NCBI GenBank assembly: GCA_963753085.1
Contig: CAVWBF010000027.1
Location: 10,382-74,381, forward strand
Direction: 5' to 3'
From: an uncultured Spirochaetota bacterium
GTDB lineage: Bacteria; Spirochaetota; Spirochaetia; SZUA-6; Fen-1364
DNA: 64,000 bases
Positions 10,627 through 15,224 of the stretch are shown piece after piece. How positions within the stretch are numbered: position 1 is the stretch's first letter; each line of letters starts with the position of its first letter. The position numbers and the translations under genes were made by a program. The notes under the pieces were generated by a model. That model was given only the letters and a program-made list of their open reading frames with translations. It ran no database searches and had not been told where the DNA came from.

Positions 10627-11529
10627 TCACCTGCCCATGGCAAGCAGCTTCTCTGTCACCATCTGGTAGAGCCGACGCACGTCGGCGTCCGTCGTGTGGT
10701 ACCCCGTGCCGGTGGTCTGCTGACGCACGACCACGTACCCGTATTCCTTGTCGCCTCCCGGCTCCCTCACGAACTCATCGAATCCCATCGAGCTGAGCTT
10801 GTGGAAAGTGTCTCCCTTTCCGCGGCAGAGAAATACGGCGTACATGTAGGGAACGTTGCCGTTGGGGCCCTTGTTCACGGCCACCTGGAGCTGGACCCCG
10901 AGGAAATCAGTGGGCTTGCGACGGGGCTCCACCATGAGCCGGATGTCCTCCGGCACCTCGTGGCCGTCCTTTTCCTTGTCCAGCTTCAGGTACGGAGTGA
11001 TGATGATGTCTCCTCCCTCGGCCTGCTCGGTTTCGAGGATCGGCTCGAAGACACGCATGCGGAAGGCGAGCTCCTGCGGGGTCCAGAGCATCACGTTGCC
11101 GGTGAGAAGGAACGGGATGAGCAGCACGAAGGCATCGAAGCAGACGAGGGCCGCGAACGGCCGGTCGCTCATGATCAGGACGAGGCTTGCGATGGCGAGC
11201 ACGACGGCAATGAACCACCCGAACCCCGGCCGATAGATCACGGAGAACCGCTTCTGGCGGGTGAGCTCGAGGTTGCTCCTGATCCGGTCGTATTCCCTGA
11301 CGGACGCCGGCTGCCAATCCTCCTGTCCGATGTCCATTGGCTTGTTACGGAAGCTGCGCGCGGACACGAAAAGCAATCCGGGGATCATGAGCGCGATTCC
11401 GGCAACAAAGCCAAACTCAGGCAGAAGGACCTGGATGGCGAATCCCAGGACGGCAAAGCCGGCAAAAATGAACAGCCGGGCGGGAAAAACGACACGCGGA
11501 ATGACGTAACGCATCTCCATCTCTCGCAC
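10627..11529 (-). CDS. Membrane protein of unknown function (about 4 TM helices plus a soluble C-terminal domain), last gene of the rSAM operon
   Basis: 300-aa ORF with hydrophobic helices in the first about 150 aa. Only 6 nt separate it from the rSAM stop. No family recognised. Confidence 0.6.
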   Translation of the reverse strand: MREMEMRYVIPRVVFPARLFIFAGFAVLGFAIQVLLPEFGFVAGIALMIPGLLFVSARSFRNKPMDIGQEDWQPASVREYDRIRSNLELTRQKRFSVIYRPGFGWFIAVVLAIASLVLIMSDRPFAALVCFDAFVLLIPFLLTGNVMLWTPQELAFRMRVFEPILETEQAEGGDIIITPYLKLDKEKDGHEVPEDIRLMVEPRRKPTDFLGVQLQVAVNKGPNGNVPYMYAVFLCRGKGDTFHKLSSMGFDEFVREPGGDKEYGYVVVRQQTTGTGYHTTDADVRRLYQMVTEKLLAMGR

Positions 11530-11535
11530 CCTCCG

Positions 11536-12927: not shown

Positions 12928-14588
12928 TGAGCGCCCCCCGAGACGCACGCGGAGTGACATGCGGAATGGCATGCCGAATGGCACGCGGAGTGACAGGCGT
13001 GGTGGCAGGCGGAATGGCACGCGTTGTGACACGCCGAGTAGCAGGCGCCGACTCCGCCGGTGACTGCCTGGGGCGGAGCGAAACAGCCCTTGAAGCAGGA
13101 CGCGGAGGCCATGAATGTCCTGTAATCCGCGGAGAAGTCGTGCGGAAGATGCACCTGCGAGTAGACCGCCGTGTTCCAGAAGATCCATCGGTAGGAGGAC
13201 CAGTACCAGAAATACGGCTCGGCCCTGTCCTGATCTGTTTCCTCGCGCTGCTCCAGCTTCTTCCTGTAGAACTCCTTCGTGGCATCGATGTCGCAATCCC
13301 AGACCTTCTCCTGGAGCTTTGCCAGGACTTTTTCAAAGAAGTCGGCAAGAAGCCCTGAAAGCACCGCTCCCCGCGTATCGAAGGATTGGAGGAAAAGCTC
13401 CTCGTACTCGTGCTCCGCTTTTCGCACGGTCAGGATTTTTATCAGGAGGGGATCCTCGGAAACGACGTCGATGATGCCCTGGCGCTTGAGGCCTTCCAGC
13501 ATGATGGCAACGACTTTCTGCAGCGGCATCTCCAGGAGAAGGGCCGCTTCCACGGGATGCAGGTCCTTTATCACTTTTCCCTTGACCTGATAGGTGCCGC
13601 CATAGAGCTTGGGCGGGATCCAATTGTCTCCTGCCCAGCGGATTCCCTGGACCTTTTCCATGGTCCTTCCATACCCACGTGCCTTGAGGATGTAGAGGAT
13701 GAGGACAGCAGCCAGGAGGACGGCAAAGACCGCTGCCATTGCCGGCAGGCTCATCCTCGCGGCTGAGGCAGCCGTAGTGGTCCCTCCGGTCGATGGGGCC
13801 GCGCTGCCGGCAGCACCGGGGGCCGTACCGCCTGTGGCACCTGGAGCGGCCCCGGCAGCGCTTGAGCTGAAGAGGACTCCAGCCTGCATCGGAACAGCGG
13901 ATTTTTTGAGGTAGAACTGCAGCCGCTGGGCCTGTCGAGCGGAGACCTTTTCCTGGTTGAATCTCAAGGTCAGGTAGTACGCGCCGTCGGTTCCCTTTGT
14001 CCCGAAAGCATCGATGCTGTTTTCCCGGTTGACGAAGGCTTCTGTTCGAAAACCGAGCCTGTCCAGCTGCTCGGGCGACACCTTCGCTCCCGCCACGACG
14101 ATGGGAAAGACGATCCTGACGGTGCGGTGCTCCAGGGGCTCGTCCCATTGCTCGGGTGCCCAGTCGAAGTAGAACAGCTCTCCGTAATCAGCCGAGGTGG
14201 TCCAGCCGATCAGGTGTGCCGCGGCCAGGTCCCCTCCGTAGGCAAGAAAGTACATGGCCGTGCCGGTGAATGCCTGTCCGCCGGCAAGCACCACGTCGTA
14301 CCTGCCGTCCCCCAGGTCGGTGATGGTCAGGCCGACGCGCCTGTTCCCTCCGAGGTCCGCAAAGCACTGCTTGAAGTTGAACACGGGGGTGACAGCGGCG
14401 CCCTGGAAATAGAACCCGTGCATCTGTCCGCCCGCGGCCTCCCAGTCGAGGCTCTCATAGAAATCCGCCTTCCCGTCCGCGCGGACAACGACATCCATTT
14501 CCACGGATCTCAGGTCTGCCGTAACCGCGAAAGCGACGAGCCTGCCGACCGAGAGCGCGAGGAAGCATGCCAGAAGAGTCTTTTTCAT
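12924..14588 (-). CDS. DUF2207-like single-pass membrane protein with a C-terminal CXXX (ACHS)n cysteine-repeat tail
   Basis: Signal peptide ([21 protein letters not shown]), about 210-aa ectodomain, Ala/Gly/Thr-rich linker, TM helix ([23 protein letters not shown]), about 240-aa C-terminal domain ending [41 protein letters not shown]. ATGA overlap with the upstream gene. Confidence 0.8.
   Translation of the reverse strand: [554 protein letters not shown]
12939..13046 (-). repeat. Coding 12-nt tandem repeat (about 8 units) encoding A-C-H-S
   Basis: Units read codon by codon. Cys alternates tgc/tgt, His cat/cac, Ser tcc/tcg, and Ala gcg/gca/gcc. Confidence 0.85.
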
Positions 14589-15224
14589 TTCTTGTCTTCC
14601 AGTTCCTTCGAGATCGAGAGGCGCTGGCCGTCACTCACTCCGAGCAGGTCCTCCACGGTCCTTTCCCGGATCACACGGGCGCAGTCCATGATGTCGCCGG
14701 GCAAAACCCTCCGCCGCTTCATCCGAGGCCGCGCCGCTGCTGCCGGGAACGCCGTAGCGGCGACCCGTCGACTCCTCGTCCCGCTCACCGAGGAAGACCT
14801 GGCATATCTCGAGCACCCTCTCGATCCTTTCGTTTGCCAGGGGCGAATAGCTGGAAAGCTCGCGACATTTTTCGAGGTATGAGCCGGACTCCTGGAGGAA
14901 ATACTCGATGGCTCTGGCCAGTCGCTCGTTGCCCAGCCTCAACACGGAGATGCGCTCGCGGACCCTTTCCACCTCCGCTGTCCTGGCTCGAGTCCTGGCC
15001 AGCCGATCCTGCTCGCTTTCCCTGACGATCTCCCTGGCTCCACGGCGTGAAAAGAAGACGGCTGTGGTGACCCCTGCATAGACAATGATGACCACGATGA
15101 CGGGGGCCAGTGAATGCTCTCTCAGAAATGCGACGGCCAGGGCTGCGAGAACAGCCGCTCCAAGGGCCAGCGTCAGGGACAGCCGGGACCGCAGGTACAG
15201 GGAAAACGGATTCTTCGGGGGCAT
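14585..15224 (-). pseudogene. Two-TM coiled-coil protein (XpaC-like), split over two frames (apparent frameshift or indel error)
   Basis: Frame A (14631-15224) has two TM helices and an AIEYFLQESGSYLEKCREL region, then degenerates. Frame B (14585-14788) gives a plausible C-terminus ending ...SISKELEDKK whose stop overlaps the next start (ATGA). A switch is possible at the A/T homopolymer near 14702-14707. Confidence 0.5.

Follow-up and report, generated by a model that had tools for sequence, protein, structure and literature searches.

Does a radical S-adenosylmethionine (SAM)/SPASM maturase, a class whose known targets are, to our knowledge, nearly all small secreted peptides, with a few soluble enzymes besides, also modify the tail of a membrane protein? 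This question is raised by a locus in a 64,000-nucleotide stretch of DNA (here called the window) from an uncultured Spirochaetota bacterium (GenBank assembly GCA_963753085.1, contig CAVWBF010000027.1). Four adjacent minus-strand genes at window positions 10627 to 15224, here named A, B, C, and D, form the subject of this report, and the evidence throughout is computational. Gene B encodes a membrane protein that ends in a strict Cys repeat, and gene C encodes a radical SAM/SPASM enzyme. We found that the two are kept together in bacteria and archaea, and we consider it probable that C covalently modifies the predicted cytoplasmic tail of B.

The Cys-repeat tail of protein B

Translation and hydropathy confirmed the order of parts that an initial annotation of this DNA had given for B: a signal-like segment (residues 4 to 22), an ectodomain, an Ala/Gly/Thr linker, one transmembrane (TM) helix, and a C-terminal region of about 250 residues that carries the Cys tail. 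The tail contains 11 Cys, nine of which (C516 to C548, nucleotides 13043 to 12945) lie at exact i+4 spacing, and C498 and C502 are also i+4 to each other. It begins with CFKGCF and a 13-residue spacer, continues with the nine-Cys repeat, including (ACHS)4, and ends in ACVSGGAH. Just upstream of the repeat is a conserved segment, FM.S.SCF.GCF. The i+4 Cys run of B is the only one in the 64-kb window.

The tail is predicted to be cytoplasmic, as the initial annotation had proposed, because B has a cleaved signal peptide and a single TM helix and follows the positive-inside rule, with Lys and Arg commoner after the helix than before it. A second TM helix at residues 455 to 485, which would place the tail outside, was rejected since this poorly conserved aromatic stretch reached a KD19 maximum of only 0.15. 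We also rejected a c-type heme motif (overlapping CX3CH), given the cytoplasmic placement and a 4-residue spacing that is too tight for hemes. The description of B as DUF2207-like held in part. The ectodomain scored above the Pfam cutoff for DUF2207-N (PF09972; 27.5 versus 24.4 bits), but just 7 of 28 B homologs matched at an E value of ≤0.01, and this marginal membership suggests that B belongs to a divergent DUF2207 branch.

Over its last 41 residues the tail is near-identical in about 65 loci, even where B overall is just 41 to 50% identical. The shared sequence has nine Cys, includes AC[YH]SACHNACH[SD], and has His at its end. Invariant columns in an alignment of 28 B proteins are concentrated in the tail, which is the most conserved part of the protein. 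The pattern is not due to chance, for 65 independent loci preserve it almost to the letter. The tail codons have invariant amino acids and third positions that differ in 25 to 68% of loci, with Ser encoded by TCN or AGC. Because the residues are fixed while synonymous change is free, selection acts on the ACHS reading frame, and this codon analysis led us to reject a DNA-level repeat or an overlapping or alternative frame as the origin of the tail. Protein-level purifying selection on the B tail and on the N-terminal domain of C is extreme.

The number of Cys is nearly fixed at nine in the close spirochaete/Myxococcota branch, where bacterial B proteins are 516 to 597 residues long. Short-contig homologs had suggested a variable repeat number within this branch, which was not borne out in genome loci; in more divergent relatives the number does vary, from 3 to 13. 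The repeat also misleads gene callers, because it is GC rich and without a stop codon in the other frames: many gene calls for the radical SAM enzyme (P0027, P0060, P0085, P0110, and others) start within the upstream ACHS repeat in another frame ("MPLRVPLRVPFRV"). Several public B homologs (P0001, P0020, P0023, and P0024) are frameshifted within or just ahead of the repeat.

Gene C and its pairing with tailed partners

Gene C has the cluster motif CNNACRFC, and C126-x3-C130-x2-C133 is invariant among homologs. Its initial assignment as a radical SAM enzyme with a SPASM-type C terminus was borne out by scores above cutoff for PF04055 (94.8 bits, cutoff 29.5), PF13186 SPASM (40.2 bits, cutoff 21.5), and TIGR04085 (42.9 bits, cutoff 27). 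The SPASM Cys residues, C371-x12-G384-x4-C389 and C426-x2-C429-x5-C435-x3-C439 plus C357, are all invariant. The eighth SPASM Cys after C439 is absent, so one auxiliary-cluster site may be open or have a non-Cys ligand.

An AlphaFold2 (AF2) model of C (pLDDT 77.8, pTM 0.80) alternates strands and helices over residues 117 to 302. Ahead of this core, the AhbD model aligns only from residue 122, so about 115 N-terminal residues of C are extra. In the model they hold strands at residues 31 to 33, 38 to 41, and 45 to 48 and helices at 51 to 61 and 75 to 93. A helix followed by three strands and then helices is the topology of the recognition element (RRE) of the systems for RiPPs (peptides that ribosomes synthesize and that are then post-translationally modified), and the domain is among the best-conserved regions of C, in parallel with the near-invariant tail of B. 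The initial annotation had described this segment as resembling a PqqD-like RRE. Its modeled fold is consistent with that description, but its sequence stays below threshold: over residues 32 to 70, PF05402 gave 17.4 bits (cutoff 23.4), NF033530 (lasso-PqqD) an E value of 0.008, and TIGR03859 an E value of 0.13. We therefore call the domain RRE-like, from a medium-confidence model and subthreshold profile matches.

SuiB, an RRE-containing radical SAM/SPASM RiPP maturase, was the top Foldseek match of the C model, over its full length (E value, 8e-15; TMq, 0.58 to 0.60; 16 to 17% identity). BlsE, SkfB, DesII, and then PqqE followed, with MoaA, viperin, and anSMEcpe lower. Sequence matches to solved structures agreed, SkfB being among the best and CteB weak (E value, 3.6e-5). 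C thus does not group with the SPASM enzymes that act on other than peptides, a grouping that would have spoken against a peptide-modifying role. Matches to anaerobic sulfatase-maturating enzyme (anSME) models were confined to the SPASM part, with 25.9 bits against a cutoff of 349 and, for a second model, 15.9 against 484; PapB, matched over the same part, gave 16.2 against 340.

A scan for the radical SAM enzyme across one genome per species yielded 80 loci, from Spirochaetota (Treponema, Gracilinema, Breznakiellaceae, and others), two Myxococcota metagenome-assembled genomes (MAGs), and seven Thorarchaeota. More than 120 homologs of C with at least 60% identity were all from Spirochaetia-type MAGs. 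When the four window proteins were searched by tblastn, the A-B-C-D order was kept in essentially all of the approximately 70 bacterial loci with enough flank (identity to the window, 41 to 81% for B and 29 to 83% for D), and D was nearly always downstream of C. Genes beyond these four are common only to the closest relatives, so the module consists of A to D. The pairing held from both sides: a Cys-tailed B lies directly upstream of the radical SAM gene in every bacterial locus with enough upstream DNA, and all complete B homologs carry the tail. A potential start codon for C overlaps the stop codon of B in 52 of 66 loci (TTGA in 51, ATGA in 1). The last His codon of B is CAT in 53 of 65 loci, and CAT followed by TGA creates the TTG start of C. 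This overlap points to translational coupling of B and C. A-B-C-D is, in our reading, a conserved membrane-associated module.

The Thorarchaeota loci encode a 708-residue B-like protein with a signal peptide, ectodomain, TM helix, cytoplasmic domain, and ACHS-type tail. Its gene is divergent and upstream of a radical SAM gene whose product is 38 to 39% identical to C. A and D were not detected in these loci, and since B and C are kept without them, B and C form the core of the system. Between the two Thorarchaeota genes is a conserved 134-residue open reading frame (ORF) (L074, 6444 to 6848, minus strand; also in L076, L078, L079, and L080), which is 88 to 90% identical between loci and has no counterpart in the bacterial module.

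We searched 1.84 billion cluster representatives by phmmer with the cytoplasmic part of B and obtained just 166 matches, in two groups. The first contains divergent B-like proteins with tails of the form (ACH[SD])n...ACVSGG, where n is 3 to 13. Proteins of the second group are more distant; they share this architecture and end in GGGG-CACACACAGCACACAGGGR. Scanning metagenomes with them found 275 relatives, of which 80 loci (L081 to L160) were kept, and this sister family is the larger of the two. The CACACACAGCACACAGGGR tail is present in 76 of these 80 sister-branch loci and letter-identical in 57. A homolog of C lies on the same strand just downstream in 48 of the 51 loci with at least 1.5 kb of downstream sequence, mostly less than 150 nucleotides from its partner, and is 30 to 35% identical to C (E values down to 1e-57). 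Because the sister branch pairs its CACACACAGCACACAGGGR tail with its own homologous radical SAM enzyme, tail type co-varies with enzyme lineage. The two tail types share an Ala-Cys dipeptide and the end ..AC.xGG.[HR]. Neither the sister-branch enzyme nor its partner is in a curated NCBIfam family, and the partner's cytoplasmic domain scored about 21 bits against TIGR04222 (cutoff 43).

Several side observations concern this wider group. Directly after its CX3CX2C motif, C has an invariant extra Cys (CYAGC137; window positions 12472 to 12525, C residues 135 to 152), followed by a Gly/Cys-rich insertion of variable length (..GCGT..GCG..; alignment columns 165 to 210) with low model confidence; the CACACA-branch enzyme has CYVGRK at that place and is without the insertion. 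In one sister locus (L093), where the B-like and radical SAM genes lie at 5941 to 7575 and 7895 to 9226, a small ORF at 5516 to 5947 encodes two TM helices and a zinc ribbon and overlaps the start of the B-like gene. Weak phmmer matches (P0358, P0371, P0395, P0381, P0383, and P0404) have further Cys-repeat tails. They include a 493-residue protein with 24 Cys at i+4 spacing (CYDSCYGVCYDS...), tails of the form CH.ACH.AC...GSRGWR, and an SCACACACVSCACACACAGGGGCT variant.

Candidate modification of the tail

Adjacency, coupling, the RRE-like domain, a tail predicted to lie in the compartment of the enzyme, and a pairing that persists in both bacteria and archaea and with either tail type together argue that B and C are a substrate and its enzyme. 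We therefore favor, with moderate confidence, covalent modification of the Cys-repeat tail by C. The initial annotation had proposed as substrate a CXXX-type tail of a membrane protein rather than a leader-core peptide, and synteny, conservation, and the sister branch support that proposal.

In the scheme that we propose, the N-terminal domain of C would dock on the C-terminal region of B, with FM.S.SCF.GCF as a candidate docking site. Each tail Cys, always preceded by Ala, would then be processed by 5'-deoxyadenosyl radical chemistry aided by the auxiliary clusters. The outcome that we hold most likely would be a series of small thioether rings of the sactionine or ranthionine type, and Cys-derived heterocycles of the thiooxazole type would be the alternative. 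The modified tail would stay on B as a rigid and/or metal-binding appendage, with A and D as membrane partners. The product most likely remains attached to B, since neither a protease nor an exporter is encoded in the module and B's body of about 500 residues is itself conserved.

The thioether route is plausible by analogy with CteB, SkfB, PapB, and QhpD. CteB has an RRE and an auxiliary cluster whose open site binds a Cys of the substrate, QhpD forms thioethers in a protein subunit, and PapB processes six Cys-X3-Asp repeats (PMC8172795). With its seven SPASM Cys, C is one short of eight, which would allow a CteB-like binding site for a substrate Cys. Among radical SAM enzymes, SbtM presumably also makes Cys-derived heterocycles, to judge by its NCBIfam name, and its model matches C weakly in the SPASM part (24.3 bits, cutoff 350). 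A heterocycle route is plausible in the manner of the MNIO enzymes, which convert Cys to heterocycles on bufferins (PMC12452194). With an invariant small residue before each Cys and His alongside, the tail would be suited to chelating metals.

Several findings weigh against modification of the tail by C. C touches 68 NCBIfam equivalog families and reaches the cutoff of none; AhbD is best (118.9 bits, cutoff 500), and GeoRSP (92.2, cutoff 400), ACGX (82.5, cutoff 400), and StsB (70.1, cutoff 625) are also below. The PqqD/RRE profile score of its N-terminal domain is subthreshold as well. The repeat is without the carboxylate acceptor that PapB needs and has no obvious acceptor half of the kind found in hairpin sactipeptides. 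Even unmodified, a ladder of Cys and His could bind metals. Some loci also break the pairing. In one MAG (L017, 544 to 3357; P0008, 937 residues), B and C are apparently fused, with loss of most of the Cys tail and of the end of the B cytoplasmic domain; either the assembly has deleted or collapsed this part, or the locus truly departs from the tail rule. In Thorarchaeota, a single locus (L078, 0.47x coverage) has just the first 79 residues of B, and 3 of the 51 sister-branch loci are without a downstream radical SAM gene within the flank. All of these exceptions may be assembly artifacts.

The metal-binding potential of the tail leads to the first rival explanation, in which the tail is a native, unmodified metal- or Fe-S-binding element of B; C, though functionally linked, would then have some other target, such as another protein, a lipid, or a cofactor, or would draw on the tail as donor of a cluster or of electrons. 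We regard this as unlikely, although it accounts for several observations. The alternation of Cys and His with an invariant small Ala fits a ligand ladder, and the distant branch has a different, equally Cys-rich tail. Proteins of the TIGR04222 type are often Cys tailed without an adjacent modifying enzyme (PMC12452194). The top NCBIfam matches of C, AhbD and NirJ, are small-molecule enzymes, albeit far below their cutoffs. However, AhbD and NirJ, whose models align from about residue 122, do not have the RRE-like N-terminal domain of C, and the best structural match of C is a RiPP maturase. The start/stop overlap and the co-variation of tail and enzyme are, moreover, the usual signature of an enzyme and its substrate.

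A second rival makes B a giant precursor, with the modified tail cleaved off as a Cys-rich RiPP of sactipeptide-like or ranthipeptide-like kind and the rest serving as leader or scaffold. The class of RRE-containing radical SAM/SPASM enzymes normally makes RiPPs, and the putative core is at the extreme C terminus, as in RiPP precursors. Yet genes for a protease, an ABC exporter, or immunity are absent from the conserved module, and the 500-residue "leader" is itself conserved in its ectodomain, TM helix, and cytoplasmic domain. The tail is also near-invariant across phyla and archaea, unlike fast-evolving antimicrobial cores, and we consider this explanation improbable. The last rival, that C is an anSME-like oxidase converting tail Cys to formylglycine or otherwise oxidizing single residues with no cross-link, we hold to be very improbable: anSMEs belong to the SPASM enzymes and target Cys of full-size proteins within the cytoplasm, and anSMEcpe is among the structural matches and the weak SPASM-only sequence matches of C, but the anSME models are far below cutoff, the C/S-x-P/A-x-R sulfatase motif is absent from the tail, an RRE domain is not part of anSMEs, and the module contains no sulfatase gene.

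If the tail is modified by C, as we favor, a wider idea can be entertained, though only tentatively. Rather than yielding a secreted peptide, RiPP-type radical chemistry might build a fixed, genetically templated prosthetic ladder of nine Cys-derived units, either thioether rings or thiooxazole/His metal sites, on a full-size membrane protein. Such a system would be ancient, being found in Spirochaetota, Myxococcota, Thorarchaeota, and the large (CA)n-tail sister family, and the ladder could be a metal, redox, or signaling element that couples a DUF2207-type ectodomain to the cytoplasm.

Layout of the module and genes A and D

The features of the locus are collected in Table 1. The initial annotation described a tightly packed four-gene minus-strand operon. 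B, C, D, and the junctions (ATGA for A/B and TTGA, a 4-nucleotide overlap, for B/C) agree with that description, but A is not a single ORF here. An Rfam scan of the window gave zero matches, and a scan for an operon promoter and terminator gave nothing exceeding the shuffled expectation.

Table 1. Features of the A-B-C-D locus, in window coordinates
Feature	Position	Strand	Basis
Gene A: ~212-aa protein, two N-terminal TM helices (residues 15-33, 39-57), helical cytoplasmic part	14585..15224	-	ORF list, ORFs of relatives, hydropathy
Gene B: 554-aa single-pass membrane protein	12924..14588	-	ORF translation, Pfam, alignment, hydropathy
Gene B, DUF2207-N ectodomain (marginal)	residues 26-196, nt 14513-14001	-	Pfam
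Gene B, TM helix	residues 283-301, nt 13742-13686	-	hydropathy
Gene B, cytoplasmic domain (predicted)	residues 306-497	-	position after TM helix
Gene B, C-terminal tail, proposed substrate of C	residues 498-554, nt 12927..13097	-	sequence, codon analysis
Gene C: 463-aa radical SAM/SPASM enzyme	11536..12927	-	Pfam, NCBIfam, AF2 model
Gene C, RRE-like N-terminal domain	residues ~13-93, nt 12891-12649	-	AF2 topology, subthreshold PqqD matches
Gene C, radical SAM core	residues 117-302; CX3CX2C = C126/C130/C133	-	PF04055, model
Gene C, SPASM region	seven invariant Cys C357, C371, C389, C426, C429, C435, C439; nt 11859-11611	-	alignment
Gene D: ~297-aa protein, four TM helices (two hairpins) and conserved C-terminal α/β domain	10627..11529	-	ORF list, homologs, AF2

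Gene A spans 640 nucleotides and is split over two frames, 14631 to 15224 and 14585 to 14788, whereas in relatives it is a single ORF of 210 to 215 residues. An extra base in the window near 14695 to 14698 gives GCCCGGCGACATC instead of the expected ..CGG GAC ATC.. on the minus strand. This frameshift either arose as an error in assembly or sequencing or marks a genuine pseudogenization of A in this genome. The initial view of A as an intact ORF therefore fails on a 1-nucleotide insertion; its two TM helices stand. Frameshifts of a kind typical of long-read assemblies are present in many public homologs of these genes as well as in A. We found no relative of A in Pfam, NCBIfam, or PDB. Its homologs gave scattered subthreshold Pfam matches, one of them XpaC-like (PF10112; E value, 0.003), which we did not use.

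Gene D was confirmed as a four-TM protein, and its AF2 model (pLDDT 70) adds a β-rich C-terminal α/β domain to the four helices. Translation of D probably begins at ATG 11520, whose Met is invariant in homologs. The homologs of D (n = 343) are all without annotation. Foldseek gave no match with an E value of <0.3; the best, YbjN/DR_1245/SycH-like, at about 0.4, were too weak to use. PDB sequences searched with profiles of A, B, and D gave nothing significant. The C-terminal domain of D (residues ~150 to 300, window positions 10627 to 11100) is very highly conserved, with no sequence or fold relative detected, and has the motifs EGG....TP.L.LD, PEDIRLMVEPRRKP.DF.GVQ.QVA.N.GPNG.VPY.Y.VFLC, and VVRQ...G.GY.TT..D.

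Relation to known systems

Databases currently annotate the pair as "radical SAM protein" and "hypothetical/DUF2207." Literature searches linking CXXX repeats or DUF2207 to radical SAM enzymes found no papers. The system is highly conserved, sharply defined, and widespread, and its radical SAM enzyme likely acts on the cytoplasmic end of a membrane protein. Two tail types that differ in sequence, (ACHS)n and (CA)n, are each matched by a separate enzyme lineage, and the system occurs in bacteria and Asgard archaea. It would offer a first mechanistic handle on the large uncharacterized class of DUF2207-like proteins, and the nine identical sites in the repeat are ideal for mass spectrometry. A curated family model would improve annotation, because gene callers often start the radical SAM gene inside the repeat.

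In its working the system is like the ranthipeptide and sactipeptide maturases (PapB/freyrasin, CteB/SCIFF, SkfB, and thuricin-type systems), which also combine an RRE-like N-terminal domain with radical SAM and SPASM parts and have a Cys-rich, repetitive substrate gene directly upstream. Unlike in those systems, the proposed substrate here is the tail of a 554-residue membrane protein rather than a 40- to 60-residue leader-core peptide, protease and exporter are lacking, and the ACHS repeat has no Asp or Thr acceptor. With a long membrane protein in place of a short leader-core precursor, B does not belong to the sactipeptides or ranthipeptides. SuiB, the maturase that forms the Lys-Trp bond of streptide, matches C structurally over RRE-like, radical SAM, and SPASM parts, but the bond that it makes is C-C, on a short Cys-free peptide, and its identity to C is low.

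The initial annotation had also pointed to the TIGRFAM CXXX-repeat family. TIGR04117 (Cys-Xaa-Xaa-Xaa repeat target) does have Cys at every fourth residue, is an in silico family of predicted radical SAM targets, and is the sole NCBIfam model that touches the tail. Judged by model name and scores, however, it describes a protein of about 98 residues that is not a membrane protein, and membership was not borne out: the window tail scored 12.2 bits (E value, 0.14) and a divergent relative 14.4 bits, against a cutoff of 50.

QhpD, which acts on QhpC, and the anSMEs likewise combine radical SAM and SPASM parts, and the proteins whose Cys they modify go on working as proteins and do not become natural products (PMC8172795), as we propose for B. 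They differ in that QhpC is a small soluble subunit and an anSME targets a single sulfatase motif, and C has no sequence-level membership in either family. In the closest published idea, the Cys-rich tails of TIGR04222 membrane proteins were recently put forward as putative MNIO substrates (PMC12452194, 2025). There, too, a full-size membrane protein has a low-complexity, Cys-rich C-terminal tail that is the presumed target of an adjacent RiPP-type enzyme. The present enzyme is a radical SAM/SPASM protein rather than an MNIO (DUF692), the predicted place of the tail is the cytoplasm rather than the periplasm, and the repeat is strict and fixed. B did not match TIGR04222, and none of A to D matched the MNIO families in Pfam or NCBIfam.

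By its predicted parts the system thus resembles sactipeptide and ranthipeptide maturation in its working, yet it is not a member of those groups, and all family models score below cutoff. The idea raised by TIGR04222 and MNIO, that RiPP enzymes modify bona fide membrane proteins, would with B and C extend to a second enzyme superfamily.

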